This document shows, piece after piece, positions 3,202 through 30,800 of a DNA stretch of 64,000 nucleotides. Position numbers and translations under genes: made by a program. Each line of letters opens with the position of its first letter. Within the stretch, counting starts at the first letter, position 1. The notes beneath the pieces are model-generated. The model was not told the DNA's origin, ran no database searches, and saw only the letters and a list, made by a program, of their open reading frames with translations. Origin of the DNA: a virus; IMG/VR virus record IMGVR_UViG_3300029787_000018, positions 13,140 through 77,139 of that record; one strand, 5' to 3'.

Positions 3202-5724
3202 ATGCAAGAAACGATTGATTGGGGTAGCGACATAGCTATCCAAAGAAATCCTGTTTCTGTAGATTTACCTATTTTACAACCTGGCCAAGTTCATAATGTA
3301 GAAATGATCGAGGCTAGGTTTGAAATAGGTAAAGGTCGTATGATTACCGACGGAACAGGAACCGGAAAAACGTATACGGGTTTAGGTGTAGCTAAAAGAT
3401 TTTCTTTGTTGGGCAAAAATAAACAGCTCATAGTTACGCCTACGGACGATAAATGTAAAGATTGGATATTAGAAGGAAACCGCGTCAATCTTTTTATAAC
3501 ACAATTAAAAGATAGCAATGACATGGGTAGAGGCATTAGAACCACTACCTATGCAAACTTTTATCAAAATCAAGCATTACTACGTGAAGAATTCGATTTG
3601 ATTATATATGATGAAAGTCATTATATAATGCAAAACGCAGCAGGAAAAGAAACATCATGTTTCGATCAACATAAATTGATATGTTCCCTTCCTTCTGTAT
3701 TTGAAAAGCGTGGTGCTTATTTTATAGGTAGAAGACCTTTTACTATCAATAGCCCTAGTGAGGCAACACCAGAAAAAATCCAAGCGAATAAGATTTGGCA
3801 AAAGCGCTGTTACGACAAAGGCCTGGAGCTTTATCACAAGACCAAGGTTTTGTTTATGAGTGCTACTCCTTTTGCATATGTCAAGAACATTAAATATTGT
3901 GATGGACTAATGTGGGATATAGAGGAACGCCTAAACGAGGAACTTCATCCTCATGTTGGTTACGGTCAACCTACTAGGTGGGAGAAATTTTTGATTGATA
4001 ATTTCGGCTATCAAATGAAGAACGGTAAGCTTCAAAAACCTGACGTAGAAGTGGACACTTCTATATTGGAACGTGATTTCTTTGAAAGAGCCAAAGAGAA
4101 AAATCTAATGTCAACAAGAGTTCTCGAACTTGATGTTGATTACTCTAGGCACTTTATTAAAGTAGATACGGAACTAGGATTGAAAATCGATGAATTCTTT
4201 AGCTTGCTATGGAATATCAACGATGTTAAAATGTCCGAGATAAGGTTTATATTCAAAAGACATTTCAACCATATCTTTACTTCTAAGATGGTTGAATCGG
4301 CTAAAGCAGAGAACCTTTTTGACCGTATCGACACACATTTGATGCTAGGTAGGAAAATAGTTATTTTTCATGGATATAATAACATAGATATTACGCATCC
4401 ATTTAGAATAGATAACTGCAGAAAGTATCTTGACAAAGATGAACGTTGGCGTGAACATAGTCTGAATAGATTATTGGAACAGTTCTATGAAGCATACCCT
4501 GAGTATGCAAATTATGATGTAAGTCATTTAAGAAGTGTACCGGAAATAATCAAGGGCAGGTATAAAAAACGTTGTGTTCTTTATAACGGAACTATAGGAA
4601 AACCTAAGCGTAGAAGAGATAAAGACACTTTTATGGACGATGATAGCGATGTAGATATAATCGTTATTCAGTCACAAGCGGGTCAAGCTGGAATATCCTT
4701 GCACGACCTTACAGGTTTCAGACCGCGGGTGTCAATAGATATGTCGTTACCTACCAGGCCACCGGAAGCTATTCAGAAAGAAGGTAGGACTTATAGATGG
4801 GGAAGTTTATCTAATGCCATTTATGAGTACCCTACACTGCAAACGGCTATGGAGCGTATGGTATTTGCATATACTATTGCCGAGCGCACAAGAACCGTGG
4901 AGAATTTAGCGATGGGTAATCTTGCTAGAGATTTAGAGTCCGCCTTTAAGAACGGATACGAAAATTTCGAGGAAGGATTGCCCAATATTGGACAAGGCAG
5001 ATTAGGTAAAGCAGAAGATAAAAAACTGACGGCACCTATATCTCCTTTCCAAAAATCCATTACTTACTACTATCAAAAGCAAAAGGCAAATAAAAAAAGG
5101 AACAAAGCTTTACATACCGATTTCTTTGCTACTCCCGAGCCTATTGCGTTTAAGATGGTGGAATGGGCTAATGACAATGAAAATATGGTATGGCTTGACC
5201 CTAGTTGTGGTGATGGTGCCATTGCCAGATTTTTCCCCGATAACACAAAACGAATCGCTATTGATGTAGATGCAAAGCTTTTGTCGTTATGTAAACTTAA
5301 AGCCAATGTAGATGCCAAACACATGGATTTTATAGAATATAAAATCAATAACAAGGCTGATAGGATAATCATGAATCCACCTTTTGGCTATGGTGGTAAA
5401 ACAGCTATAGAGCATTTGCTGAAAGCATTGATACATTTACGTAAAGATAAAGGCAACGCTAAACTTTATTGTATCATACCTAGAGGTTCTAGTTGTGAAA
5501 AACATTTTGAAAGAATGTCGGAGAGCGCAAATATGAAGTTCTTCAACTATACCGGTGAAATACTTTTACCGAAGTGTACTTTTAATAGGGCTGCAACTTC
5601 TGTAGCTACTAGAATCGTAAGATTTGAAGGAACGCACATAGCACAACATTTCCGTTCCATTGACTTAACCTATGTAGAGAACAACAAACAGTTGTTTGAA
5701 GTGTTTGAACATTTAGAATTTTAG
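3202..5724 (+). CDS. SF2 helicase (strawberry-notch/DarB-like) fused to N6-adenine DNA methyltransferase
   Basis: Walker A GTGTGKT, DESH, SATP, helicase-C 'AGQAGISLHD' and 'IQKEGRTYR'. C-terminal MTase motifs FFATPE, LDPSCGDG and MNPPF. Confidence 0.85.
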   Translation: MQETIDWGSDIAIQRNPVSVDLPILQPGQVHNVEMIEARFEIGKGRMITDGTGTGKTYTGLGVAKRFSLLGKNKQLIVTPTDDKCKDWILEGNRVNLFITQLKDSNDMGRGIRTTTYANFYQNQALLREEFDLIIYDESHYIMQNAAGKETSCFDQHKLICSLPSVFEKRGAYFIGRRPFTINSPSEATPEKIQANKIWQKRCYDKGLELYHKTKVLFMSATPFAYVKNIKYCDGLMWDIEERLNEELHPHVGYGQPTRWEKFLIDNFGYQMKNGKLQKPDVEVDTSILERDFFERAKEKNLMSTRVLELDVDYSRHFIKVDTELGLKIDEFFSLLWNINDVKMSEIRFIFKRHFNHIFTSKMVESAKAENLFDRIDTHLMLGRKIVIFHGYNNIDITHPFRIDNCRKYLDKDERWREHSLNRLLEQFYEAYPEYANYDVSHLRSVPEIIKGRYKKRCVLYNGTIGKPKRRRDKDTFMDDDSDVDIIVIQSQAGQAGISLHDLTGFRPRVSIDMSLPTRPPEAIQKEGRTYRWGSLSNAIYEYPTLQTAMERMVFAYTIAERTRTVENLAMGNLARDLESAFKNGYENFEEGLPNIGQGRLGKAEDKKLTAPISPFQKSITYYYQKQKANKKRNKALHTDFFATPEPIAFKMVEWANDNENMVWLDPSCGDGAIARFFPDNTKRIAIDVDAKLLSLCKLKANVDAKHMDFIEYKINNKADRIIMNPPFGYGGKTAIEHLLKALIHLRKDKGNAKLYCIIPRGSSCEKHFERMSESANMKFFNYTGEILLPKCTFNRAATSVATRIVRFEGTHIAQHFRSIDLTYVENNKQLFEVFEHLEF

Positions 5725-5727
5725 ATT

Positions 5728-5892
5728 ATGGTAAGAATATCAAGTACAACTATTTTTGATTCTATTAAAGAAGTTAAAAAACATGTTGAAAAACAAAATA
5801 TAGATGATGATAGATATATTTTAGTTTCGTGTAATTATGGTGATGTAATGTTTGAAAAAAGAAAAGGAAAAATTAAAAGAGTTTTTATTTAA
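5728..5892 (+). CDS. small hypothetical protein (54 aa, MVRISSTTIF...)
   Basis: Hand-translated open frame filling the gap; its TAA overlaps the primase ATG (TAATG). Confidence 0.55.
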   Translation: MVRISSTTIFDSIKEVKKHVEKQNIDDDRYILVSCNYGDVMFEKRKGKIKRVFI

Positions 5893-8717: not shown

Positions 8718-10079
8718 ATGAAAGCTAGAACTAAAAATCAAAAATGTGTTGTCCAACTTAACAAAAGAATAAAGCCTCTAGGTGTACGAATTAAAAATTG
8801 GGCGAAAGATAGTATTCTTCAAAAAAGAGGTGTCAGATATAAGTCTGGCACCCTTAACTGTTTTGAATGCGGTCATAGGTGGAAAAGTGAGAGCAATGAA
8901 GCTTGGCACGATACTATCATGGAATACATATGTCCATGTTGTAAAAAAGAACTTGCCATTGAAGCTACCAATAAAAGAACTAAAAATGATAATGCATATT
9001 TTACTCATGTTACTACTATTGCCGAATACCAACTTATAAGAACTTTTAAAATAGATGTTAAATATAAAGTTGGTAAAAAACCTAATTATGAAATTTATGA
9101 ATGCTTTAGAGTATTTATAAATGAAAAAGGTCAAGGCGAAGTAGTAGGTTCTCTTAGAGGTGGTATGTTTTATTCTTACTTAGGTTTTTGGAATGGTCCA
9201 ATGATATTAAGAGGTAAAAATACTATATATAGCAAATACACTGAACAAGGTACTTTATATCCTAAGTGGAAGCTTCAAGACTTTGTTATTAAAAGAGGTT
9301 TTTATTATTCTAAGTATCAAGAATCGGAATATATAGTCAGTCATGTTCTTATTGAATTGCTGAAAAACCATAAAGCTGAAACAATCTGGAAAGACGATAG
9401 GGTAATGTTATTCGACTATTGCATTTATGCAAAAAATAAAATAGAAAAGTACTGGCCAACGATTAAAATATGTATTCGTAAAGGTTATGATATGCCTAGT
9501 ATATCTTCTTATTTCGATATGCTGAACGCTCTGGAATATTTTGGAAAGGATTTACGTAACCCAAGATTTGTATGTCCGGATAACTTTTTTGAAGCGCATG
9601 ATTATTGGATCAATAAAAAAGCTAAACGTGAAAAGATTTTAGAAGATAAGCTAAAACATGAAGAACGTATAGCCAAACTGAAAGCCAATAAAAAAGCTGG
9701 TAAGATTTACAACAAAAGAATGGAAGTATATAAAGACCTTTCTTTTGTTACTGATGATATTAAGATAGTACCATTGCTAAAAATTGCTGATGTGGCACTT
9801 GCAGGTGATCTTATGCATCACTGTATCTATAAAACCGATAGCTATTGGAAGGAAAAAGACAATGTTCTATTTGGTACTTTTAAAGATAAAAAGCTTATAG
9901 AAACCACTCAGTTTTCATTAAAGGAAGGTAGATGCAAACATTCCTATGGTGTTAACAATAAAGAATCAAAACACCATAAAGAAATCGTAGGTATACTTAA
10001 TAATGCCAAGGATACTATCAAGCGCTTATCAAGACCTAAAAGAAAGCCCAAGCCTAAAAAAGAATTGGTAGCGGCATAA
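8718..10079 (+). CDS. PcfJ-like protein
   Basis: N-terminal CxxC..CPxC, 'LEYFGKDLRNPRFVCP..AHD' and 'GDLMHHCI' match PcfJ. Confidence 0.8.
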   Translation: MKARTKNQKCVVQLNKRIKPLGVRIKNWAKDSILQKRGVRYKSGTLNCFECGHRWKSESNEAWHDTIMEYICPCCKKELAIEATNKRTKNDNAYFTHVTTIAEYQLIRTFKIDVKYKVGKKPNYEIYECFRVFINEKGQGEVVGSLRGGMFYSYLGFWNGPMILRGKNTIYSKYTEQGTLYPKWKLQDFVIKRGFYYSKYQESEYIVSHVLIELLKNHKAETIWKDDRVMLFDYCIYAKNKIEKYWPTIKICIRKGYDMPSISSYFDMLNALEYFGKDLRNPRFVCPDNFFEAHDYWINKKAKREKILEDKLKHEERIAKLKANKKAGKIYNKRMEVYKDLSFVTDDIKIVPLLKIADVALAGDLMHHCIYKTDSYWKEKDNVLFGTFKDKKLIETTQFSLKEGRCKHSYGVNNKESKHHKEIVGILNNAKDTIKRLSRPKRKPKPKKELVAA

Positions 10080-10137
10080 ATAAACCTTGTTTAGTTCTAT
10101 ATAATTATATAGTTTAGCAGTCTTAAACATATAGATT

Positions 10138-10476
10138 ATGGCTGAAGCTAGAATAGACGTTGCGCGACGTATCAATGAAAAACTTGGCATTCGCGATTTG
10201 GAAATGGTAGAAATGGTTATACAAGAATTAGGACCTGTTATTACAGACATCCTAATGGAAGGCGGCGAAGTACATATTCGTAGTCTTGGGCGTTTCTTCG
10301 CTAAATATAAGGAGAATATGCGTGATCCCAGAAACCCAGATCCAACAGTAAAACTACCCCCGATGTTCCTTGCTAAATTCGTAATGGCAAACACCATTAA
10401 GAACAAGGTTAAAACAAAAAAAGCAGATTACTTCATCAACGAAAAGAAAAAAGAAGATGAGATCAAGGACTCTTGA
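10138..10476 (+). CDS. HU/IHF-like DNA-binding protein
   Basis: 'GGEVHIRSLGRF...RDPRNP...KF' HU arm pattern; basic, 112 aa. Confidence 0.65.
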   Translation: MAEARIDVARRINEKLGIRDLEMVEMVIQELGPVITDILMEGGEVHIRSLGRFFAKYKENMRDPRNPDPTVKLPPMFLAKFVMANTIKNKVKTKKADYFINEKKKEDEIKDS

Positions 10477-10693
10477 ACTCATTGATTTTTTTGAACATAA
10501 TTTTTCGTTTGACGAACAACAGTTGTCTGTTATTAAACAAATTTCTTTAGAAACAGGTATTGACGAAAATATAGTCAAACAGGTTCTAACACACTTATTG
10601 AAAGTAGCATACAAAGAGTTGTTGCTTTCATATGAAGACGAAGTTACTATTCGTTTTCCAACATTTAATTTATCTAATATTAAAATCGATTAA
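10457..10693 (+). CDS. hypothetical protein
   Basis: 78-aa ORF in operon context. Confidence 0.55.
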   Translation: MRSRTLELIDFFEHNFSFDEQQLSVIKQISLETGIDENIVKQVLTHLLKVAYKELLLSYEDEVTIRFPTFNLSNIKID

Positions 10694-10694
10694 A

Positions 10695-11735
10695 ATGCAA
10701 AATTCAAACAATCCTCAGAACCCAGCAACTACCAACCTAGTAATGACAGCTCCGGAGTCTACTTCTGATTTTGAAAGAAAAGACAAAACGGATATTGTGA
10801 AAATACAACCTGGCAACCATTTGGGTAGACTTTATGGTATCGTTGACTTAGGTACACAACATAATATTAAATTTAGTAAAGACAACCATAGAATAGCTTT
10901 GTTGTTCGAGTTTCCACATTTGATGCAAGATTTTTACAAGCGTAAAGAAGGAGAACAAGCAGAACTTAGACCTACGATGATCAAAATGGAAGAAACATTT
11001 TCCATGCATCCAAAATCTAATTTCAGAAAGCTTATCGAATCCGCTGTTGGTAGAAAGCTTAACGACGATGAAGCCAAGAGCTTTAATGTTTTTGAGCTAT
11101 TAGGAAAATGGTTCTTATGTAACGTTATGCATGACCCAGATAAAAACAACCCTCAAAACGTATACGAGCGTATCAACTTTTTACAGCCGTATGATGCACG
11201 TTTTATGGTTGAAGGTGTAAACTATAATGGTCATAACGATCTTATGGCTTACCATTTAGGAACACACAAGTTTGCCGGCCCTAACTGGCAAGGACTTTGG
11301 ACTAAGTTCAGAACACAGATACAAGGTTCAAGAGAAGGTCAGGAATGGGCTGCAAAAGGTGGTACTTTTGAGGAAGTCAAATATAATAATAACGACGACG
11401 GACAAGGTTCCGCTCAACAGAACAACACTTACGCTGGACCACAAGGTGCACCGCAAGGAAACCCAATGCAAGGTCAACCTATGCAACAAGCTCCACAAGG
11501 AGCACCACAACAAGCGCCTAACAACGCTATGCAACAACCGCAGTCTCAACCCGCACAACCTATGCAACAAGCACCGGCTACAACGCCACCTGCTGCAGCA
11601 CCTCAACAAGCACCGCAAAAGAAGTTTGTAATTAAGCAAGCACCTTTTGATATGGCGTCTTGGACTAAGGAGGGATGGACGGAAGCTATGATGATCGAGC
11701 ATGGATATGCAGAATACGTAGAAGGAGCTCTGTAA
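10695..11735 (+). CDS. putative single-stranded DNA-binding/replication protein with Q/P/A-rich tail
   Basis: Likely ATG at 10695. 'G.HLGRLYGIVDLGTQ...FEFP...HPKSNFRKLIE' resembles phage SSB-like OB folds; disordered QQAPQ tail. Confidence 0.55.
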   Translation: MQNSNNPQNPATTNLVMTAPESTSDFERKDKTDIVKIQPGNHLGRLYGIVDLGTQHNIKFSKDNHRIALLFEFPHLMQDFYKRKEGEQAELRPTMIKMEETFSMHPKSNFRKLIESAVGRKLNDDEAKSFNVFELLGKWFLCNVMHDPDKNNPQNVYERINFLQPYDARFMVEGVNYNGHNDLMAYHLGTHKFAGPNWQGLWTKFRTQIQGSREGQEWAAKGGTFEEVKYNNNDDGQGSAQQNNTYAGPQGAPQGNPMQGQPMQQAPQGAPQQAPNNAMQQPQSQPAQPMQQAPATTPPAAAPQQAPQKKFVIKQAPFDMASWTKEGWTEAMMIEHGYAEYVEGAL

Positions 11736-18251: not shown

Positions 18252-18408
18252 AAGACGTTTTTTAAGAGGTCGTAAATACGACTTTATGGCTAAGTATGCT
18301 TACTCTCTAGGTTTTGATAATGTTACCGATGCGATAAACTTTATGGGTTCTGGAAGAATATTCAGAAACTCTTTTAATGAATGGTGCAAATACAAACGTT
18401 TAAAATAA
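18229..18408 (+). CDS. small basic protein (59 aa, MAKKRPYKRR...)
   Basis: Hand-translated open frame. Confidence 0.55.
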   Translation: MAKKRPYKRRFLRGRKYDFMAKYAYSLGFDNVTDAINFMGSGRIFRNSFNEWCKYKRLK

Positions 18409-18412
18409 ATTT

Positions 18413-18550
18413 ATGGAAGAAGAAACATTTCAATGGATAATTATAGCTGGATTGATCATAGCTGTTGTAGTTCTGTTCTACAGAACACCTAAAAAAGAAC
18501 AGGTAGATACTTTGGAAAATAAGACCAGGTATCTTTCTGAAAACGATTAG
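18413..18550 (+). CDS. small membrane protein (45 aa)
   Basis: Hand-translated MEEETFQWIIIAGLIIAVVVLFYR..., one TM helix; ends just before a terminator. Confidence 0.55.
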   Translation: MEEETFQWIIIAGLIIAVVVLFYRTPKKEQVDTLENKTRYLSEND

Positions 18551-18551
18551 T

Positions 18552-18586
18552 AAAATGTCCAGTTTATTAATAAACTGGACATTTTT
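18552..18586 (+). terminator. intrinsic terminator ending the core early operon
   Basis: AAAATGTCCAGTTTA-ttaa-TAAACTGGACATTTT perfect 15-bp stem plus T run. Confidence 0.8.
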
Positions 18587-18714
18587 ATTTATTTAAACCA
18601 ATAGATATAACGTACTAGGAAATATGACCTATGTGCGTTTTTCTACATACGTAAAACTTATGGCAAATAATAAATATGACGACTTTGATAAAAGTAGGAT
18701 ATTAAGATTGTTTC

Positions 18715-18939
18715 ATGGACTTACAAAAAATGTTTGAAGTGGTCGAAAACACAGACCGTAAAAGATGGGAATTTACCCCAAATGAAGGCGTGAACGAAAC
18801 AAGTTACACAGTAGCCTTTTATGAATGTGATAATGAACCTGATGCGTGGATAGCTTTATATTTAGCAATATCCAAAAAAAACCAAAAGACAGCAAGTAAG
18901 CGAGGTTTAAGCATTTTTTATATGCATTGTTATCAATAG
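18715..18939 (+). CDS. hypothetical protein at the proximal end of the cassette array (possibly degenerate)
   Basis: 74-aa ORF running across the first GTT half-site; an overlapping 25-codon ORF starts at 18660. Confidence 0.4.
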   Translation: MDLQKMFEVVENTDRKRWEFTPNEGVNETSYTVAFYECDNEPDAWIALYLAISKKNQKTASKRGLSIFYMHCYQ

Positions 18940-18968
18940 TTAATGATTAATCACAAACCACAATAGAT

Positions 18969-19238
18969 ATGCCAGATTATAAATTTTTTCCAATGAATGA
19001 GCTACCTGAAAAAAGCGTAGACGACCCAAGTTTTAGCAAGACAGTACTTGTCTATGATAAAACCGATAATAACCACATATTCGAGAACCTTGGCTACTAC
19101 GATTTTGAAGATAGTGAATGGACTCATTTTGGTGATGAAAGTATGAATTTAATATGTTGGTGTTATGTACCTGACCCGAAAAAATTTATAAGCTCGAACG
19201 ATTTAGAAATTGCCTTACATAGAGGTTACCGACCTTAA
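18969..19238 (+). CDS. cassette 1: DUF551-like protein
   Basis: 'ELPE...VLVY...GYY...W...CWCYVP.P' pattern; stop lies inside the cassette's right inverted repeat. Confidence 0.65.
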   Translation: MPDYKFFPMNELPEKSVDDPSFSKTVLVYDKTDNNHIFENLGYYDFEDSEWTHFGDESMNLICWCYVPDPKKFISSNDLEIALHRGYRP

Positions 19239-19242
19239 TTAT

Positions 19243-19363
19243 TGGTAACGTTAAAATGTATGGTGCGTTTTGCACGAACTTAATTAAATATTAAACAACT
19301 TTTGAATTATGGAAAATACAACGCAGAAAATCAACGATAAATGCACTATACATAGTGTTCTTA
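19243..19363. repeat. attC-like site S1
   Basis: TGGTAAC ... ATGTATGGTGCGTTT (19256-70) / AAATGCACTATACAT (19339-53) ... GTTCTTA. Confidence 0.7.
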
Positions 19364-19614
19364 ATAGTGCCGTTGTTTGGGATACTCTCGAAAACTTTGA
19401 TGCAAGCACTACACTTGCTCAACACGCTTTTGTAAGTGTTCAAAGAGGTAAATATTATGAAGATAAGTATGACGGAAACAAGTCTTTATGCGGAAAGATT
19501 GGGGCACACGATGGCGACAAATTCATTGCTTTAAAAGACTTTAACCCTGAAGTATTGAACGAAGAAAAAGCGTGTAAGACCTGCCTTAAAATATATAAAA
19601 AAGGTATTATTTAG
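19309..19614 (+). CDS. cassette 2: hypothetical Cys-containing protein
   Basis: 101 aa; starts inside the S1 loop; SLCG...CKTC. Confidence 0.65.
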   Translation: MENTTQKINDKCTIHSVLNSAVVWDTLENFDASTTLAQHAFVSVQRGKYYEDKYDGNKSLCGKIGAHDGDKFIALKDFNPEVLNEEKACKTCLKIYKKGII

Positions 19615-19663
19615 AACGTTGAGTATAAACCCTCGTTTTAATGGGGTTTATACATTGTTACCC
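19611..19663. repeat. attC-like site S2 (minimal)
   Basis: TTAGAAC gttga GTATAAACCCtCGTT-tt-AATGGGGTTTATAC att GTTACCC. Confidence 0.75.
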
Positions 19664-19709
19664 TTAGTACGGGTTTGAAGAAATAAATTAACTTAAAAAC
19701 AGAAATAAA

Positions 19710-20132
19710 ATGAAAATTGAATTAACAGTAAAAAAGGAATTTGAAGTAAAGACATTATTAGTTGAAGCCAATGTAAGATATTGGGAAGATGCAACTGTAA
19801 ATGGTGTTGAAGACGAAAACGGTGATTTAATACCTTGTAAATTAGGCGACACTTGGAAGCCGATTATTGATTTAGAAACTGGATTAATAACTAATTGGGA
19901 AAAAGGAAAGGAAGCGGATATACATTACAAAGTATGTGATGCAGGTGAATATTGGTTGCAAGATGAAAACGGTGAAAAGATTGTAAAGGCAAAAGGATAT
20001 TATGTACCTGACTTTTTAGCAATTGACGATAGTGGATTGGGCGACTACATTATTATGAAAGTTGACAAAGATGGTAAAATCAACAATTGGCGATTTGATA
20101 GCGAACCATTTACTAACGAAGACGAAGATTAG
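19710..20132 (+). CDS. cassette 3: conserved hypothetical phage protein
   Basis: 140 aa, 'VRYWEDATVNGVED..G.LIPC...W.P.ID...IHYKVCDAG' resembles a widespread phage family. Confidence 0.7.
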   Translation: MKIELTVKKEFEVKTLLVEANVRYWEDATVNGVEDENGDLIPCKLGDTWKPIIDLETGLITNWEKGKEADIHYKVCDAGEYWLQDENGEKIVKAKGYYVPDFLAIDDSGLGDYIIMKVDKDGKINNWRFDSEPFTNEDED

Positions 20133-20138
20133 TATTAA

Positions 20139-20333
20139 GGGTAACGATTAATCTATGATTAGTCGCAGTCTTAAACCTAAACACAATAAATATGGAATAT
20201 AAAAAAATATTAACCGTTGCCGATTTAAGGGATGTTAACGATTCTTATGAGAAGGGTGAAATATTATACTCAAAAATGGTAGAACTTCTAAACAAGCGCA
20301 TATCTGAGCGATTAATTATAGATGTTGTTACCT
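20139..20333. repeat. attC-like site S3 (contains an ORF start)
   Basis: GGGTAAC ... ATCTATGATTAGTCGC (20151-66) / GCGATTAATTATAGAT (20308-23) ... GTTACCT. Confidence 0.7.
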
Positions 20334-20356
20334 ACTGTGGCGATTTAATAAACTAA
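20192..20356 (+). CDS. 54-aa ORF encoded mainly in the S3 loop (MEYKKILTVADLRDVN...RLIIDVVTYCGDLIN)
   Basis: Hand-translated; AT-rich leader; not in the ORF track. Confidence 0.55.
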   Translation: MEYKKILTVADLRDVNDSYEKGEILYSKMVELLNKRISERLIIDVVTYCGDLIN

Positions 20357-20367
20357 AATTTTGATAA

Positions 20368-20616
20368 ATGACTGAAACTAAAAATACATACGAGCCAAAT
20401 GGCACAGAAGAAGAAGTAAAACTTGGTATTTTGCATAATGTAAACGGCTACTGGGTAAGCAACGAGGGAACTAGACAGCAACCAAACTACCACGTATGGA
20501 TACCAAGTGTAACGCACTCGGTTTGCGACAGTGCCTATGCAGAAATAGACCTTGCCGTTTGTAGATGTAATTATTTGGCGAAAAATAAGATTGAGGCACA
20601 TTACCAGCCATTGTAG
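20368..20616 (+). CDS. cassette 4: hypothetical protein
   Basis: 82 aa; TAG stop inside the right inverted repeat. Confidence 0.6.
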   Translation: MTETKNTYEPNGTEEEVKLGILHNVNGYWVSNEGTRQQPNYHVWIPSVTHSVCDSAYAEIDLAVCRCNYLAKNKIEAHYQPL

Positions 20617-20747
20617 GTAACGGCAAAGTATAAGATTTCGGTTGCGTTTAGGCGACTGGCTTAATTAAATGTGCGTTACTCTGATGGTGTAGAAATACCT
20701 CACAGACAATGACAAACTAAGCAACTGAATTTTATACATTGTTACCC
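20615..20747. repeat. attC-like site S4
   Basis: AGGTAAC ... GTATAAGATTTCGGTTGC (20628-45) / GCAACTGAATTTTATAC (20721-37) att GTTACCC. Confidence 0.7.
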
Positions 20748-20796
20748 ACTTTTTAAAAAGCCGTGCGTGAGGTACGAGGGCAAACACATACAGATT

Positions 20797-21492
20797 ATGA
20801 AATACACAGGAAGTAAAAATAGAATTTCAAAATACATATTACCAGTAATGCTTGAAGGTAGAACCAATGAAACTTGGGTTGAGCCTTTTGTTGGTGGTGC
20901 AAATATGATTGATAAAGTTGAAGGAAAAAGAATTGGTTTTGATAATAATGAATATTTAATAGAGCTATACCATTATTTACAAAATGGAGGTTTAATAGTT
21001 AATAGGTTTATAACAAAAGAACAATGGCACAATGTAAAAGAAAATATTGAAAATTACCCAAAATGGTATGTTGGTTTAGTAGGCGTTTTAGGTTCTTATA
21101 ATGGTAATTGGTTTAGTGCTTATGGTGGTGGAAGTAAAACTAAAGAAGGTAATTATAGAAACTACTTTGATGAAGGTATAAGAGGATTATTAAAACAAGA
21201 TTTATCTAATATTCAATTTGTATTTTCTGATTATAAAAATATTAAAATACCAAATAATAGTATTATTTATTGCGACCCGCCATACCAACTAAAAAACAAA
21301 AGATATAAAGAGCATTTTGATAGTGAAGTGTTTTTTGATTGGTTTAGAAATAAAGCAAAAGAAGGACATAAAGTTTTTGTTTCTGAATATAATGCACCAA
21401 AGGATTTTAAATGTATTTGGCAAAAAGAAATAAGTAAAACTAACCCAAAGCAAAAAGTAAACAAAATAGAAAAATTATTTACGATTGAGTAA
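20797..21492 (+). CDS. cassette 5: Dam-like (D12 class) N6-adenine DNA methyltransferase
   Basis: KYTGSK, VEPFVGG (motif I), YCDPPY (motif IV), VSEY; likely ATG at 20797. Confidence 0.85.
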   Translation: MKYTGSKNRISKYILPVMLEGRTNETWVEPFVGGANMIDKVEGKRIGFDNNEYLIELYHYLQNGGLIVNRFITKEQWHNVKENIENYPKWYVGLVGVLGSYNGNWFSAYGGGSKTKEGNYRNYFDEGIRGLLKQDLSNIQFVFSDYKNIKIPNNSIIYCDPPYQLKNKRYKEHFDSEVFFDWFRNKAKEGHKVFVSEYNAPKDFKCIWQKEISKTNPKQKVNKIEKLFTIE

Positions 21493-21579
21493 GCCGTAAA
21501 GATTGGCGGCTTTTTACATTGTGGGTAACAATTCGCTATGAGTACTACAGCATCACATAACTAACTAAAAATCAATAGT

Positions 21580-21792
21580 ATGCGTGTAAATGTAAAATTT
21601 GAAGCGGTATGGCAAATAAAGGGTAATACAGACTATAAAGTTACTAAACGCAAAATGGTAATTAATTCTAAAACAGAAAAACTATTAACCTATAACAGAA
21701 GAGGTTATTTTATAATGGGTAAATATTTAAAGAAAAAAGATTTAAACCATTATTTAGAAAAGATACCTGAAGAAAATAATTTGCCATTTTAA
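21580..21792 (+). CDS. hypothetical protein, last gene of the + arm
   Basis: 70-aa basic ORF ending in LPF. Confidence 0.65.
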   Translation: MRVNVKFEAVWQIKGNTDYKVTKRKMVINSKTEKLLTYNRRGYFIMGKYLKKKDLNHYLEKIPEENNLPF

Positions 21793-21799
21793 TAAATAA

Positions 21800-21876
21800 A
21801 CCAACTGACAAATAATCTTTGACAGTTGGTGTAATTAAGTATTTCAACTACTCGAAAATATAGAGTAGTTCTTTTT
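21800..21876. terminator. paired hairpins at the convergence of the two genome arms
   Basis: ACCAACTGaCAAA/TTTGaCAGTTGGT (21800-30) and AACTACTC/GAGTAGTT followed by CTTTTT (21846-76). Confidence 0.6.
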
Positions 21877-24800
21877 AAAAAATAGACTCTACCATTGATT
21901 TAGTTGTTCTTACTGCAGAAGGTATAAGCTTGTATTCGATCTTATCCAAATCCATGTAGTAATTGGCATCCCAATAAGCACTCTCTGCAAACCTATTATC
22001 GGTGCTCAATGCAAATCCCCCAATAAGTCCTGACATTGCCAGACCTTTTAGCCCACTATCAAGTCGTTTGGCTAGCTCAGGACTTTCTTTTTGAAGCTTT
22101 TTACGATATTCTATATAATCTTTCGGATTCATGCTTTGAACCTCTGAAACCGTCTTAAAAAGCATTCTTAGCGAACCGATATGTTCGTTACCATAAATAT
22201 CTATATCCTGTTTCGCGAATCTATCGTTTACAACAGTAGGTAAGAATCTTGAAAACTGCAACATCATTCTACCTAAGCTATATTGCTGAATCAATCTTTG
22301 ATCAGTAGCTTGATACCCTTTCCCTTGTGATTTCTTCACCTCGTTCTCCAACATGATCAACCTTTGTTGATCAATAGGCTCTTCCATAGGTTTATACTCC
22401 CCGTTCTCGTCAAACTTGTTCCATTCGGCTTCGGTAAGCATACCCGCCATCTGAACACCTTGAATCCATTTCTCGCTCCACGTCATTGGCATAAGTGCCA
22501 AATCGCCCAAGAAATTATCAAGTCTCCCTTTTGAGGACATAGATACGTTATCGTATACATTGATATCCATAAAGTTCAACGTCTTTAGAATCTTCTGTGT
22601 TCTTTTCATTCGTTTTACAATATCAAATGGATTGGTCGTACTGGTATCCATACCCCAAAAACGGCTTTCTCCTTTTGCCCATTCTTTTACAGAACCGTTT
22701 TTAATGTTATGGTACTTACCAGAGGCTACGTTACCCATGAAATAACTAGCGTTAAAACCTAACTGCCAAAATAGGTTCATCTTAGTCAATAGGTCTACAA
22801 CCTTATCTCCTTTTTCACCTAATAGGTTTTGTCGCTTGCCTTTTAAGTAGTAATCTTTCCAGTTCATTTTTACGTACTTACCGGCATTCTTTAAACCTTT
22901 GTCCTGGTTCAATGCAAGGACACCATCTACAACAGCTTGCATGCTCTTGAATCCTGCAAAGTTTTCATTACCGTTAACGAACAACGTAGAATGAACATAG
23001 CTGTTAAGCGCATGGTTTAAATCCATAGAAGGCATTTCGGTAGCTTTATTACTACGTGTATTGGCAAATCGGTTCATAATACCGAAAGACAATGCAGAAT
23101 CCATTTCAAAATCGGAAACTTCAATATCCGAACCGTCTTCATTTTTGCCGCTTTTTAAGAGCTTCTTAGCCTTGTTCTTTAAAAGAATGTAGTCTTTAAT
23201 CTGCTTGGCATTATTCTTAGTGCTGGCCGACATAGCAGAGTATATGTTATCGATATCCTTAAAGCTAACAAGCTCTTTTTTGCCAGTGTCCGGATTATCG
23301 ATATATAGCATTACTTCGTTTAAGGCGTCATCGCTATTTTTCGTAGATTGGAGCAACCCGAGAAGTCCTCTATTTGAAAAAGATTCAAATGTGCCCATAG
23401 AGGTGTGAGGTATATAGCCTCTCCTGACTCTTTTACCGTCTGAGGTAGAAGAAGGGGCAAGTTCTCCGGTAATGTCAGTGAAAGTTTTGTAGAAGTTGTA
23501 TTCGGCTTCGGATAATCTGCCTTGCTCTTTAAGTTTGTTGATTTCTTCATTGCTTTTTAGTTTGAATTCTTTAATGACCTTACCCTCGGAAACAATCTCG
23601 TTCTCTTCTACAAGATTACCGTAAAGTATGTTGTAAAGGTCTTTTCTGTTGTGAATATAACTATAATAGAAACGTTTTAAAATATCTATAGGGTTACCGC
23701 TATCGAACATGAAACCGAACTTCTCTTTGTAAAGTGCGTTCGTAGTTTCGTTGATCCTGGTAACGTATTTTTTCTTTTCGTTCTGAAACTGTTTCTCCAT
23801 AGCTGTCATATTCCTTACCATACCTTGTATCTCTGGATGATTGGAAGGAATATTGTTAGCCATTAACCAAGTTTGTACAGGACCAAGGTCTTCATTGGTT
23901 TTTGTACGTCCTGTCAACTTTGTTTGTTGAGCGGATATCTTTGCCGCCAACGCCTTTACTATAGGTGTGGTAATATTGGCATACGCATAGGCATTTTTGG
24001 AACCGTACGTTCTATATAGTTCCATAAGCTTTTCGGGGCTGAACTGATTAAAGTCCTTACCCCTGAAGCTTTTGTTATATATTTCGTTGGCTCTCTTTTT
24101 TTCCTTTACGTATTCCTGATAAGCCTGGTTCTTGGATTCCTCTGTTTGAAACTTGTTGAACTCCATGGCATCGTTGAACGTCTGCTTGTCCATAAAGTCC
24201 TGTGACTTGTAATCCCAGAACTCTTCACGAGCTTCCATGCCTATCGGCTCAGCTTTTTTTTTAACACGTGGAACAGGATTGTTGGAACTAGAAGTAATGG
24301 TAACTAAATCTATATCCAATTGGTTGTTCGTGCGTCTAGGAACTTTTTTTATCATTTTTGTAGCGTTCTTGGCTAAATGATTAAGTCTGTTCAACGTGTT
24401 TGAAATAGGCTTGTTGAATACTTCGGACTTGTTTCCTATAAACTTGTAAAGGTTCATATTGCCCTTGGCATCCCTTGACTTGAAGTAGAACTGTGTATTG
24501 TTCTCCAACGCTGCTCTGAACTGTGGGTTCTTTTGCATTTCTATCATAGCCTTTTCAGGTGATAGCCCTTTAATGTCAAAGAAAGGAATATTGTTACGTA
24601 CACCATTGATATCTTTAAGCATCAATATTTCTTCCAATTCCCTAAGCTCTGGACGCGTATAGGTTTTATCGTTTTTCTCCTTGAAATCTTGGTTAAGGTT
24701 CTCTACCAACATTTTGTTCGTGAACGAGTCGGTAATAGGCAACATGGACAAAGGACTTCCCCAACCGTTTTTGGTAAGGTCATAATAAACAAGTTTATAT

Positions 24801-27800
24801 TGCAAGTCTGCAGGAAGTTCCGAAAACTCTTTGTTCATTCTACGTACCTCTTGGGTAGTAAGGCTTTCATCAAAGAAACTACTGTTCATAGAAATATAAG
24901 GCTTGTTTCCATCGAACTTCATATTAAGCCCTTGCGTAAGCAATAGATTGTTTTCAAGATTGCCTTCCATCTTAAGCCCGGCTATATATTCCGATAAATC
25001 TGCAAATACGCTGTTTTCATTTTTAGGATCAACTATTTCGGCCAACTCTTCTTTGGACATATTGTTATATCCCGAAATATTGGAATGTAGGAACTTTGAA
25101 ATACTTCTGGTATACTTCTTAATCTGGTTGTCGTTCAACAGTTCCATGCCTTGCTTAACGGCCAAGCCTTGTAGCAACTTGGTAATAGCGGGTCTATAAA
25201 CCAAATCTATTTGTTTGGTATGTTCCAATGTAGCTTCTGCAGTATTCAAATACCTTTTTAAATCTGGATTACTAGCCATTTCTGCAGGTATGTTCATCGT
25301 AGAATCCTCATTGTTCATAATACGCTTGAACTCTCCTATCTGCTTTTCCAACAAATATGGGTTGGTTTCAATACCGTTATGACCAGCCATAATCTTACTG
25401 ACCTTTTGAATGTCGGCATTGACTTCATCCATTTTCATTATTAGGTTAATAATGTTGGACTGGTTTTTCTGGCTATAGAACTCTTTGTTATTGGTATTGG
25501 TAACTACGCCACCTGTAGAATTGGAATCATATTTTACGGTACCGTTATTACCATTGGAAACAGACCTTTTAGCTAATTCTGTCAACATTTGCTTTCTAGG
25601 GGTGTAACCGTGGAACGCAGAATTGTTTTCGTTCATTATCGAAACATATTCTTTTACCATTGGAGCGTTCATCATAACGGCTACATCTTCAATAGGAATG
25701 TTGAGGTTGACCATTAAGGTAAAAGCCGATACCGTATGTTCGTTTATATTCAATGCATCCGCTGCATTTTCGTTAAGGTTGTCCAGAATAAGGTTGGCTA
25801 CCAATGCAGATTTATGGTTACGGCTTTGATCACCTTCTCCCATATCCTCGAATATCTGGTAATTGGTATTGTTTACCATTATACCTTCTTTCATATTGGC
25901 TCTGTACGCGGCAAGCGTATTGGCAATTCTATGCAAGTTGAAAACGGTACCGATATTCCTTTTGGCGATCATGGAATCCTCATAGGACTTTCTTCTGTAC
26001 GATGGAGAAAATGCCAATGGCTGTTCTTTTACATAGTTAGGGAACTGCTCTTTGATATGTTCCTTTAACTTTTTACCTTCTCCGGAAGTGTCCATTGCCG
26101 TTTGAATGAACGGTGCCATTTTTTCACTAAGCCATAGCTTTTCCATACGGTCTATGACTTCGTTCATTTTTTTGTTTTTTCCTTTATGTTGGATGAACAA
26201 GGCATCACCATCTAAATCCGCACCTATTGTCTTACTGAAAGAAGTAGGTACCTGTACTTGGTTTCCTTTACCAACGGCAAACTCAACAGCTTCGAATATA
26301 CCTGTAAAGTTTGGTCCGTTTGAAGGAACACGAGTGGCTATTACCGTTTCCCCAGGAACATAATAACCGATTACCTTACCGTCTTTAAGAACGGTCTGTG
26401 TTTCAAGTTTTGGCGTTGTTTTATCCCTATTTTTATTAAGGTGTGCTACAAACTTGTCCGCAGCTTCTTTTAAACGCATAAGGTCGTTTTCTTGCGGTGT
26501 TTTGGTCTTGTCAAGATAACCGTTCGTATCAGTGGCTTTGATAGCCATTTCGCCTAATTTACTATCAGGTGTATAGTATTTTCTGGCTCTTACCTTTCCA
26601 TTTAAATGTTGGGGCAATACAATCTCCGCCCTATTAAGTCCTGTAGAAGCTTGCGTATAACCGTTAAGCTCATTACTTCCTTTTATTTCTCCATCAACAG
26701 GCAATTCCCATCCATAACTAGACTTCTGGTGCGCATACGTACCAGCTATTCTTAACTTGTTACCTTTTGACTTTAAAGTGTTCGCTAATTGATTGGAAAC
26801 GATCTCTATTGCTCTAGGGTGTAGTATACCATATTTTTCGATAACGAACCTTTGGACTTGATCCATGTCCTCTTTGTTCATTTCCTTGGTAACTATTTTA
26901 TTATATGTAGCAACATCTTTCTTTTTAAGTTCATTGGTAACCTCGTTAAGGTTTTCGGACATCATATCCGATATCAGTTCTTGTATCGCTTCGGCTTCTT
27001 CAAGATGCCCAAGATTTAAAGAATGAACTAATAGCGAGTTCATTTGCTGTACAGGTAACGTTACTTCATCGGTAACTTTATCCATTACTTGTTGTGGTCC
27101 AAAGTTGTAACCACTGATACCCATAAAACCACCTTTGGAATCATACATGATGTTGTCTTGGAACTCACCCGCTTTGGTAACTCCCTCTTCGTTCATAAGC
27201 TCGTTTAAGTATGGTGCATTCTCCATACCCTTGCCTTTTTGAATTCCCGTTTTCTCAGAAGAAAAAGGAATTGCTATCGGAAAGTAGTTCTCTAGACCAT
27301 CGGTAAAGTTATCACTAGGCATTGCACCATTGTTCTTTTTAGCGTATGCATCGAACATTTTAGCACGTCTGGCTTTCATATGTTCGTATAATCCTTTGAA
27401 CTTGTAGTTCTGATCAACAAAATCTTGGTCGATTATAGTAGTATATCCTTTAAGCAATACGGTGTTACCTCTAAAGTTCGGGTTGTCTTTTTCTACAGAG
27501 TAGTTAAGGAACTTGAAACCTTCATTCAAATCAAATACACCTTTACCAACATTAGCCCAGCGCTCAGCATCTTCTCTAAGTATGAACATACCACCATCGG
27601 TAGAAGCTTCATTATCTTTAGGGTCTTTAAAGAATATAGGCTCAAACTTTAAGTTCTTGTTTACGGATATAACAGGACTACCGGCATTCTTTAAACGCTT
27701 GGCAATACTTGATATCTTAATGTTAGGAGATACTACCTCAGCCATGAACAGACCGTTCATAATTTGATTGTATACATATCCTTTTACAATTTTTTCTCCT

Positions 27801-30800
27801 TTAGGATTAAGCTTTCCGTTTTTATCGAACATAGATTTTAAAGAATCTATCTTCATAAGTTCCTTGCCGTTTTTATTAAAGAAATCAACTTCTTTTTCTC
27901 CTTCTTTAATCAACGATAAGTTAAACTGACGTTTACTTATATTTTCCTCAGATATATTTCTGTAAATATTATAAGCCGCAGTAGTAGTATCGTTGGACAT
28001 ATCAAGCCTTTTAGTAGGCATGTAATACTTTCTAGGACTATCACCGAAAACACCGACGTTCGCCAAATATGTTTTTTTGTTAAGTCCGGAAGCGTACATC
28101 ATAAAGTCCTCAAAGGACTGTTCGTATGAAGTACTGTCCTCAAATGCATTGGCATTGTTGCTTACGCTATCATCGATACCGGTATAGTAAACAAGGTCTG
28201 GTTTGTTTCCAGCTACTACACTATCATAGAAATTGTCCAAAAATTGATTAGGAACGGGTTTGCTGTACGCTTTTGAACGAGTGATATGAGAATACCTTTT
28301 TATAAAATCGGCTTTAGGAATCACGTCACCGTCCTTATTAGGGCGTAATGAATCGTACATCTGGTCAAGCTCTTTGGTCATGTGGTTGTTCATCATACGA
28401 ACAGGAACCATATTTCCTTTGGCATTCTCTACAACACTATCTTGGGTAAACTCCCTATTAGTAGCCATAATAGCATTGGCAATAGGTCTAAAGTTATAAG
28501 GGTACATATACCTGTTACCGTTCTTGGCGGGTTTACCTAAATGCTTGTCGTTATCGATAAAGCTTTTAAGAACTGTTACAGGGCTATAGTAAGTACCTTT
28601 TACGTTGATAAAACCATTTTCCAATATATCCATCATTTTTACGTCAGGAGGTGCCATAAATCGATATGCCTTTACGTAATCTTCATTAGTAGCAGTATCG
28701 TCTTTTATTCTAGCTACGATACCCTCGAACTCCGACCATTGATCACCTAATAAATGACCGCTCTTTTTAAGCATGTAATCTCTGGCTTTAGCCATATTGT
28801 CCATCATGTCTTGTGCTTGGCTCTGCTCTCTTTTAGATAAAGATTCTTCAATAGAGTGGTTTATTTTGCCATCGTTCTCCGACATAACGGACTTAACGGC
28901 ATTTACCATTCTATAGTTGGAGAACAGCGTCCATGTAGAATTCAAAAGAACGGTTTTGGCTTCCGGTGCACGTAGTTCCAAAAATTTGTTGAATGCTTGG
29001 ATATCCGCATGAGGACTGTTTTCAAGTGCGTCTATAAAATCAACGGAGTTGTTTGTATTGGCAGCCAATTGGAACATCTTGTACCTAAACTCTTTCTTAT
29101 CGAATAAAGGACCTTGCTTGCCCCATATGCTTTTTCTAAGCCTAATGGCACGATTGTACTCTTTTACAAAGTTGTTGATTATTTTGGTAGCCTTAGCTGT
29201 TCTGGTCATAAAGCTTTTTTCCGCTATACTGATAACGTTATCGGCATCCTCTTGGTTGTCCGCAACCTCATCTAGTATCTGGTCTAAAGCATCCTCTTTT
29301 CTAGTGAACAAGTTCTTGTTCTCTTCCGGGTCAAAATTGGCAACTTCTTCTTCAAGCCTGCTCTTGACCTTTACCCTACGTTGCATGATGTTTGCATCGT
29401 AAGCTGTGGAGCGAGATTCAAAACCTATTTCGGTAGCTTCTATTCTAGGTACTTCTTTAAGGAACTCCATAACGATGTAATCCCTCATATTATCAATTGA
29501 AAGATCTTGGCCGTCGTTAAGCTTTTGAATAAGCTCTTGGCTTTCCTGTAAGTAAGTAGGTTCAGATTTAGCCTTGGTATCTATCATCTTCCACCACTTA
29601 CGGGTAGTATTGGTTCTTTTAGCTTCTGTACTAAGACCAAAGAAATTATTGTACTTTTTAGAAAGAGGACCTTGCATAGTAGCTACAAAGGCTTCTTCCA
29701 GAATGTATTTCTGCTCGGCCAAAGGTAAAATAGATGCTCCGTACTCAACTAGGTCTTCCTCGGTAGGTTTACCTGAGAACGTTCCTACTTCTTTACTTTC
29801 ACCAACACCAAAATTATATAGAACATAATCTGGATATCTTTCAGCTATTTCATTTACAAGCTTTTTGTTTGCCATGACCTGTTCCAGGACCGCTTTGGTT
29901 TCTGGTCTGTCCTTTGCGAATCTGTAGAAGATGTGTGTCATTTCGTGCATGAACACTTCGCCTTGGTTCCATTCATCGCTACGAACGAATACTGCTGCAG
30001 AAACAGCAAGTCCGGTACCTCGTATACCCAACGCTTTTACAAGGTCGTCAAGTATGTATGCATTTACCCTACTATCAGCTTTAGGGAACATAAAGTTCAA
30101 ACGCTGATTAATGGCAACCATTTTATCAAGGTCGCTAGGACTGTTACGTATACGTCCTATAATAGGAGCTTCGGCTCTGTTCTCTTCAAGAGGTTCGTTG
30201 TTCTCCTCAAAGGTTACGAACTCGTCGGCTTCATTTTGTTCAGATAACTCTGAATTTGATTCAGCTAATTCATCGCCTCTTGATTCCATAAAAGGACCAA
30301 CTCCTTTTTTATAAGCATCTATAGCACTACTAAGTTTCTTTTTGATCTTAGTAGCCTGGCTTTTGATTTGCTTCTTTGTTTTGTTAACCTGCTTTGGCTC
30401 GGCTTGCTTGTTAACAAAGTTCTGGAACTGCTTGGATTTATCCTTGGCGGTTTCTTTTACCTTGTCAAAAGTATCGTTGAATTTGTCTACTATTTCCTGC
30501 TCTTTGGGAGTCAACGATTTTTGACCTTTTATTTTAGCTACGATATCATCGTACGTCTTTTTTGCTAAACCTTTAGGTAATGCTTTATTAGCTTTAGCCT
30601 TAGCTTTTTCTGCTAGTTCTGAAATACGTTTCTTAACCTCTTTGGCACGTTGCTCTCTTTTAGAAGCATCTTCCTTAGATTCTTTTTTCTTGGGCTTACT
30701 AAGTGTTTCGGACTCTTCTTCCAAATCACTAAGCTCATTTAATTCATCCTCTGTAATATCATCTGAAACCTCACCCGTTACATCATCTGATTCTACACTA

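Follow-up and report, generated by a model that had tools for sequence, protein, structure and literature searches.

At the far end of the + strand replication/accessory block of a marine phage genome from IMG/VR lies an array of five one- or two-gene units, bounded by inverted repeats in which every left arm matches best with its own right arm. The stretch analysed (the window) comprises 64,000 nucleotides (nt), bases 13140-77139 of the complete 77,139-nt phage record IMGVR_UViG_3300029787_000018, and all array positions are in window numbering. The array follows a terminator at 18552-87 and precedes a convergent gene for a protein of 3756 amino acids (aa). An earlier note, made from the letters of the window, had likened it to an array of integron cassettes. 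Its features are as follows, C denoting the helices that close the genes and S the hairpins between them:

18552-18587, + strand: intrinsic-terminator-like hairpin, a 15-pair stem and then a T run, marking the close of the tightly packed operon upstream and preceding the array.
18715-19249, + strand: Unit 1, with genes A and B.
18715-18939, + strand: gene A, 74 aa, inside a helix formed by 18722-38 / 18906-22.
18969-19238, + strand: gene B, 89 aa, enclosed by the C1 helix (18926-43 / 19235-52).
19250-19617, + strand: Unit 2, with the S1 hairpin, the C2 helix (19357-71 / 19603-17) and gene C.
19256-70 / 19339-53, + strand: S1 hairpin, 15 pairs, two of them G.T; located by helix scan.
19309-19614, + strand: gene C, 101 aa, with its start in the S1 loop and a reading frame that spans the S1 right arm and the C2 left arm.
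19618-20145, + strand: Unit 3, with the S2 hairpin, the C3 helix (19654-76 / 20126-48) and gene D.
19623-32 / 19644-53, + strand: S2 hairpin, with the 11-nt loop TCGTTTTAATG; read off the sequence, and appearing in junction folds.
19710-20132, + strand: gene D, 140 aa, enclosed by C3.
20146-20621, + strand: Unit 4, with the S3 hairpin, the C4 helix (20323-41 / 20607-25) and genes E and F.
20151-66 / 20308-23, + strand: S3 hairpin, 16 pairs, two of them G.T; located by helix scan.
20192-20356, + strand: gene E, 54 aa, which starts in the S3 loop.
20368-20616, + strand: gene F, 82 aa (phrog_20712).
20622-21529, + strand: Unit 5, with the S4 hairpin, the C5 helix (20741-63 / 21507-29, 20/23 matches) and the Dam gene.
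20628-37 / 20728-37, + strand: S4 hairpin; read off the sequence, and appearing in junction folds.
20797-21492, + strand: Dam gene (gene G), a Dam-type D12 N6-adenine DNA methyltransferase (Pfam PF02086, phrog_56), enclosed by C5.
21530-21870, + strand: array end, comprising a half junction (AAC-AATTCGC-TATGAG...) without a partner arm, gene H and two hairpins.
21580-21792, + strand: gene H, 70 aa, followed by hairpins at 21793-21837 and 21846-21870 before the convergent giant gene.

The five GTT...AAC arm pairs stand where the earlier note had placed them, with the matches it had counted (13/15, 12/15, 13/14, 13/15 and 20/23). Its claim that complementarity is specific to each segment also held: in a 5x5 matrix, own-partner arms matched at 11-13 of 14 positions, compared with 5-10 for non-cognate arms. 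Most arm mismatches are G.T on the + strand and, when G.T is counted as a pair, C1 and C3 are fully paired. The four hairpins proposed between the segments were also located. Two details of the arms had to be amended. The GTT and AAC triplets, although invariant, are not the ends of the helices, which extend 1-3 bases further, to ATTGTTAC and GTAACGAT; and although the genes are enclosed by C helices, the left arms of C2 and C4 lie inside open reading frames (ORFs) that start in the loop of the preceding hairpin.

By helix scan and junction folds, the region is a tiling of adjacent long-range helices (the gene-A helix, C1, S1, C2, S2, C3, S3, C4, S4 and C5) separated by gaps of 3-10 nt. The C helices share the ends ATTGTTAC...GTAACGAT, and the S hairpins share the ends GTAT...ATAC. 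A strict C signature, defined as TGTT...AACG with at least 13 of 14 pairs, recovered C1-C4 and one spurious match in the 3.35-kb region, and two matches per strand in the remaining 60.6 kb of the window. The earlier note had named shuffled sequences as a control for such paired repeats: 200 shuffles gave a mean of 0.04 and a maximum of 1, compared with four true units. High-scoring helices in the region numbered 14 on the + strand and seven on the - strand, with 6.9 ± 2.5 in dinucleotide shuffles. The excess of unit-forming hairpins is far above chance and strand-specific. A separate 17-bp inverted repeat (18974-18990 / 19178-19194, 16/17 Watson-Crick) lies wholly within gene B, nested in C1.

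The repeats are not peculiar to this phage. The same hairpin family occurs in at least nine other Flavobacteriia-type phage records; the architecture was found in IMG/VR records G001-G007 by a scan for junction 14-mers followed by the strict signature, and it is present also in the cultured Polaribacter phages P12002L (NC_028924) and P12002S. Exact 14-mer matches in IMG/VR were mostly due to chance; six loci passed the strict signature, and G002 was added by other screens. Records G003 (IMGVR_UViG_3300038545_000026) and G007 (IMGVR_UViG_3300048589_001020) recur below, and the window phage itself is G000. Cellulophaga phage phi19:1, used as a control, had no array. No protein was found in common between the window phage and G001 or G002, and a candidate "reader" protein shared among the array-bearing phages was not found.

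A consensus was derived from 37 distinct units in five phages. The C helix is of about 16 bp, 5'-TGTT N6 (A/T)GT N3 ... N3 ATT N6 AACG-3', in which position 0 (T.G) and positions 1-3 (GTT/AAC) were fixed by the search signature. Positions 4-9 are freely covarying Watson-Crick pairs of all four types; position 10 is A-T or T.T, position 12 is T-A, and position 11 is G.T in 31 of the 37 units, a feature not imposed by the search. Positions 13-15 again covary, with all four Watson-Crick types, and beyond about 15-16 bp the pairing fades. Since loop lengths run from 29 nt to about 900 nt, there are C helices that enclose no gene. In the S hairpins G.T pairs recur, the 5' arm supplying the G. Across the helices of four arrays, G.T exceeded A.C on the sense strand by 75:14 (101:104 in controls, detection being blind to wobble type), and by 16:5 at non-conserved positions, which identifies the gene-sense strand as the folding strand. 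The arrays are always on the coding strand. ORFs often have their start in an S loop and their stop in the right arm of the C helix, crossing the S right arm and the left arm of C in between, as with gene C of the window and with 4778-5071 and 5668-5880 of stretch L066. The S/C hairpin signature, on the coding strand and with covarying cognate arms, is present in the window array.

These data bear on the reading that the repeats are paired GTAAC/GTTAC boxes for a regulator, promoter elements, or chance products of hexamer bias, with no role in folding or mobility. The hexamer GGTAAC/GTTACC is over-represented across the whole window, well beyond the array (58 occurrences, compared with 25 expected from dinucleotide shuffles), which would suit such a reading. 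However, the covariation in 37 units, the complementarity restricted to the diagonal of the arm matrix, the shuffle controls and the exchange of whole units described below require base pairing and modularity and not merely a shared box. We strongly disfavour this reading, and consider it highly improbable.

A weightier alternative is that the folding takes place in the polycistronic mRNA. The S and C helices would there present start codons in loops, tie together the 5' and 3' ends of cistrons and be used by a host RNase or stability factor. Swapping of units would then be due to ordinary or short-homology recombination at the junctions, as for the promoter/stem-loop (PeSL) cassettes of T4-type phages, and a recombinase adjacent to the array in some phages would be unrelated or an occasional helper. 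The sense-strand wobble bias fits this account, as do the spacing of the two conserved wobbles (11 bp apart, or one A-form turn), the ORFs that start in S loops and read through the arms, and the coding-strand location of the arrays throughout. Because the window phage has no protein in common with G001 and G002, any reader would have to be host-derived. On the other hand, some C helices close loops of 29-53 nt without a gene, and no Rfam family matched positions 18400-22000 at a permissive threshold. Nor do the junctions resemble PeSLs in carrying a promoter: sigma-70-like promoters numbered 17 (18.3 expected), with none recurring at junctions, in a scan that covered sigma-70-type but not Bacteroidota-type promoters, and T runs are absent from the S hairpins.

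Both for the array family and for units of the window, whole units were found to have been gained, lost or replaced at junctions. P12002L and P12002S have flanks that are 99.6-100% identical, and arrays that differ by whole units. P12002S contains three extra S+C units, with both breakpoints in TGTAT at the 5' edge of the S hairpin. Elsewhere a multi-unit block has been replaced, with the left breakpoint just after ...ACAACGT and the right breakpoint falling precisely at the end of ...GGTAAC in the one and of ...TAGAAC in the other phage. The exchanged unit is therefore an S hairpin together with a C-enclosed gene, ending at AAC. A cassette thus consists of an S hairpin, with a variable loop that often contains a start codon, and a gene closed by a C helix, and ends at AAC/G (the slash marking the boundary), which reads C/GTT on the antisense strand. 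The earlier note had proposed comparing relatives for gain or loss of units exactly at the AAC/GTT triplets. The cassette reading stood up to this comparison: whole-unit differences with breaks after AAC are seen, although one event lies in TGTAT, and the boundary at AAC/G leaves the S hairpin within the moving unit. The variation of breakpoints within the junction would also suit folding in mRNA combined with ordinary recombination, for which there is a precedent in the PeSL recombination that shuffles genes and gives mini-circles in T4-type phages (PMC2839356); but the junction homology, at about 5-15 nt, is much shorter than that of PeSLs.

Single units of the window were also found at 90-99% identity on contigs of four other metagenomes, the contigs then becoming unlike the window. 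Contigs of three other metagenomes match Unit 1 from 18715 and diverge at 19250/51, the AAC/G of C1. Matches to Unit 3 stop at 20146 (AAC/G of C3), a contig of another metagenome matches 20142-20637 (Unit 4) and is unlike the window upstream of 20142, and matches also begin at 20730, in the S4 right arm. The approximately 70-nt leader at 20730-20802 (S4 right arm, C5 left arm and 5' untranslated region of the Dam gene) has high contig depth in four other metagenomes; these contigs diverge at or after the ATG, suggesting that different ORFs are combined with the structured leader, or are less conserved than it. Sequencing runs, none of those listed being of RNA, contained apparent skips from 19675 to 20123 and from 20802 to 21507, which have 20-nt sides and may be arm-to-arm artefacts. 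No relatives of the flanking proteins of the window phage were found in IMG/VR.

The Dam unit, with its arms, is the sole DNA common to three otherwise unrelated phages (the window phage, P12002L and G003), and the homology stops at the junction motifs. A homologue of gene D occurs in Pseudomonas phages in a tightly overlapping operon without arms. The arms are therefore a feature of the cassette context, not one of the gene family, and mobility is not thereby refuted.

If a cassette were excised and circularised, its right arm, S hairpin and left arm would become contiguous. Using DNA energy parameters, this circle form of the junction (a unit's own two arms plus the S hairpin) forms a single bipartite hairpin. 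The circle form was the more stable in Units 3, 4 and 5, at -17.0, -22.4 and -26.2 kcal/mol, compared with -9.6, -16.8 and -16.3 kcal/mol for the array form. In Unit 2, the circle form was no more stable than the array form.

Members of this family have in part been described before. Qi et al. (2023) reported clusters of attC sites lacking integron integrases (CALINs) in virulent phages, P12002L included, in which HattCI and Infernal called two attC sites (PMC9892861). One of these, P12002L_attC2, recombined with attI1 under IntI1, on one strand only (PMC9892861); when we mapped the published primer sequences, the active strand was the gene-sense strand. With P12002L_attC1 there were no verified recombinants under IntI1 (PMC9892861). 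The latter is a junction with the layout of the S2 junction of the window, including the identical 11-nt loop, whereas P12002L_attC2 comes after the final AAC in each of the two P12002L arrays. Both arrays end with the same element of about 70 nt, AAC/AACGGATAAAAC...AAAGTTTGAT (~29175-29242 and ~37200-37265, - strand). The block that varies between P12002L and P12002S adjoins the attC2 element, a position in keeping with that of an insertion site. Our count of units in P12002L exceeds a dozen, compared with the two published sites, so that attC models do largely miss them, as the earlier note had suspected of standard tools. The literature texts searched yielded no account of the S/C architecture or its long cognate stems, nor of cassette genes in inverted orientation or of a connection to a Xer-like enzyme.

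In the window array the AAC and GTT triplets are invariant, a second stem (S) and a variable loop are present, and four junction sites lie within 2 kb, without an integrase. The array might be read as a classical CALIN, with junctions that are attC sites of the ordinary kind, taken from a canonical host IntI or acted on by one. The AAC/GTT triplets and bipartite hairpin layout match attC logic, and the calls in P12002L and the IntI1 activity of one site support the idea. We nevertheless judge it improbable. The cores GTTACCC, GTTATCA and GTTCTTA do not fit the canonical GTTRRRY, as the earlier note had pointed out for the first of them; the IntI1-active site is the array-terminal element and not of the S/C junction type, a junction-type site having failed; and the orientation of the genes is inverted relative to the polarity of the sites. 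The enzyme found beside some arrays, to which we now turn, does not resemble IntI closely either.

G003 (10021-10815) and G007 (8112-7309) encode a Xer-like tyrosine recombinase of 264-267 aa (PF00589, with a PF13495 N-terminal domain), on the array strand and no more than about 100 nt from the 3' end of the array. Its best NCBIfam matches are XerA, XerC and XerD, all below the cut-offs; the integron-integrase model TIGR02249 scores 102-117 bits in two stretches, compared with a cut-off of 265; and the nearest solved structures are XerA (4a8e, 5hxy) and then IntI4 (2a3v). A search of IMG/VR with the G003 and G007 recombinases yielded 20 full-length relatives. At these 20 loci there were 38 strict C hairpins upstream on the same strand (in 95.8 kb) versus three downstream (in 130 kb); on the opposite strand there were two upstream and seven downstream. 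In loci L142-L161 a conserved motif, AAC-TAYTATATGTR, separates the final cassette from the recombinase gene, 60-70 nt upstream of the start codon, and is a candidate attI-like site. The short Xer-like recombinase and this motif occur together at the array 3' end in G003 and G007, and in the majority of the 20 related loci. In G003 a NinG/Rap junction-endonuclease gene (1977-2636 of stretch L131) directly follows the recombinase; in P12002L such a gene (4418-5080 of stretch L121) comes after the array and one small gene, with no recombinase. Upstream of bacterial relatives of the recombinase, the few repeat arrays seen were of a different, GC-rich palindrome family, and are uninformative about a host enzyme.

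An RNA-level role with PeSL-like shuffling can draw on the six array-bearing phage records that have no recombinase. What it does not account for is that C hairpins are about 17-fold commoner directly upstream of, and co-oriented with, the Xer-like recombinase, and that the terminal motif is conserved. We therefore regard it as a serious but rather unlikely explanation. It is not mutually exclusive with integron-like movement of the cassettes, since attC sites act in RNA too.

The best explanation is that the window array belongs to an integron-like system of Flavobacteriia/Bacteroidota phages. The window array itself is probably an orphan within it, recombinase-less and trans-dependent, an integron-like (Xer-type) array of five mobile one- or two-gene cassettes. 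The mechanism by which the cassettes move is inferred. The contiguous arms and S hairpin of an excised circle would fold on the gene-sense strand into one bipartite hairpin, the C stem taking the role of the R box of attC and the S stem that of the L box. The folded site would be read by the short Xer-like tyrosine recombinase that other phages encode directly 3' of their arrays, behind the terminal motif AAC-TAYTATATGTR. In the window phage, the enzyme might come in trans from a co-infecting phage or the host, or ordinary recombination might act at the conserved junctions.

Several observations weigh against this interpretation. A six-frame search of the complete 77-kb genome found no tyrosine recombinase (PF00589), nor was a Y1 transposase (PF01797) found in any frame. 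PF00589 and PF01797 were likewise not found in G001, G002, P12002L or P12002S, and PF00589 was not found in G005. The window genome contains no copy of the terminal, attI-like motif in the form AAC-TAYTATNTRT. No circular cassettes of this array family, or recombination events with the presumed enzyme, have been observed. P12002L_attC1, which is of the window junction type, gave no verified recombinants with IntI1, and the same hairpin family was not seen in genome contigs carrying the bacterial relatives of the recombinase. The P12002L/P12002S crossover points are not at one fixed bond, and the start codons of genes A and G are further points at which metagenome contigs diverge, not foreseen by the cassette model. 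Finally, the ORFs running through arms, the starts in S loops and the sense-strand wobble bias fit an RNA-level role equally well. A Y1/HUH transposase of the IS200/IS605-like type was considered as an alternative mover, and was rejected on the failure to find PF01797.

Because neither the enzyme nor the terminal motif is present in the window phage, its cassettes would have been acquired, and would be movable only via a trans enzyme or by ordinary junction recombination. The proposal in the earlier note, that a system of site-specific recombination on single-stranded DNA builds the region from interchangeable units, survives in part. Interchangeable modules, a link to a tyrosine recombinase elsewhere and folding of the circle form are in its favour, but the genome has no recombinase, HUH/Y1 enzyme or attI-like site, and the linked enzyme is Xer-like and not IntI. 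We suggest more tentatively, as a possibility that falls a little short of being probable, that Flavobacteriia phages share a hitherto undescribed analogue of integrons. It would combine an insert-less Xer-like recombinase, sense-strand bipartite hairpins (with cognate stems of about 16 bp and two fixed wobbles) and inverted anti-defence/accessory cassettes moved between unrelated lytic phages, with orphan arrays serviced in trans.

The likeness to integrons and CALINs extends to arrays of co-oriented small cassettes with folded bipartite sites ending in AAC...GTT between them, and to the offset complementarity, by which a site is fully paired only when the two ends of one cassette are joined. 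It further includes whole-cassette differences between near-identical genomes, a tyrosine recombinase beside some arrays and methyltransferase cargo, and sites of the family in P12002L have been called attC, one being recombined by IntI1 (PMC9892861). If the antisense strand of the genes is taken as the "top" strand of integron convention, the layout is that of a classical integron, with a divergent recombinase at the array's proximal end, cassettes that start at C/GTT and the gene-sense strand as the folded "bottom" strand; only the cassette genes are inverted. The differences are also clear. The cognate stem in the phages is about 16 bp with two fixed wobbles, compared with a 7-bp R box; the hairpin moves with the downstream gene, with the boundary at AAC/G; the cassette genes are inverted relative to site polarity and their ORFs overlap the sites; and the linked enzyme is short, Xer/XerA-like and below IntI cut-offs. 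The window phage, moreover, has no enzyme, no attI-like site and no enrichment of sigma-70-like promoters.

T4-type PeSLs resemble the array in that conserved, structured elements of short length separate small non-essential genes within a plastic part of a lytic phage genome, and bound insertions, deletions and replacements between close relatives (Arbiol et al. 2010, PMC2839356; Comeau et al. 2014, PMC4122927). They need no dedicated recombinase, and mini-circles have been seen (PMC2839356, PMC4122927). However, PeSLs are direct repeats of a sigma-70-type promoter and a terminator, whereas the window junctions have no recurring promoter or T-run terminator; the conserved sequence in the phage array is far shorter, and private, long-range complementary unit ends are absent from PeSLs. 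A third system to compare is the attP of CTX-type phages, which becomes a site only when one DNA strand folds and on which host XerC/XerD act, an enzyme that can come from another genome. There, however, a whole single-stranded DNA phage is integrated at dif, and cassettes are not shuffled within a double-stranded DNA phage. We know of no sequence similarity between CTX-type attP and the sites of the window array.

Two other proteins of the window phage deserve mention. The 3756-aa ORF convergent with the array (21875-33145, - strand) has no Pfam or PHROG match and no DFDxD motif, and is therefore not recognisable as a crAss-type virion RNA polymerase. The label "crAss-like" given in the earlier note holds only distantly, in that the terminase is 24-26% identical to those of Crassvirales. 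We also rejected the idea that the hairpins are early promoters for a virion RNA polymerase: in the phi14:2 paper no common early motif was found, the giant protein has neither the DFDxD motif nor a Pfam or PHROG hit, and the hairpins occur also in siphoviruses. The second is an 840-aa protein (3202-5724) with 34-37% identity to Serratia, Klebsiella, Ruegeria and Vibrio phage proteins that carry DarB-like antirestriction or PLxRFG annotations.

The prevailing view of integrons is that they serve bacteria as gene-capture devices and require IntI, and the phylum to which the hosts of the array-bearing phages belong has few classical integrons. Methylation by a Dam methylase is a typical anti-restriction function. 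If our interpretation is correct, lytic phages keep accessory and anti-restriction genes as swappable cassettes, using a different site grammar and a simpler, Xer-like enzyme. This would supply a concrete mechanism behind the "ORFan" mosaics of marine phages, and would show how orphan arrays can be serviced in trans. It would also offer a testable intermediate for the origin of integron integrases from Xer recombinases. The signature TGTT-N6-WGT ... ATT-N6-AACG, combined with GTAT...ATAC hairpins, is a direct way to find such arrays.

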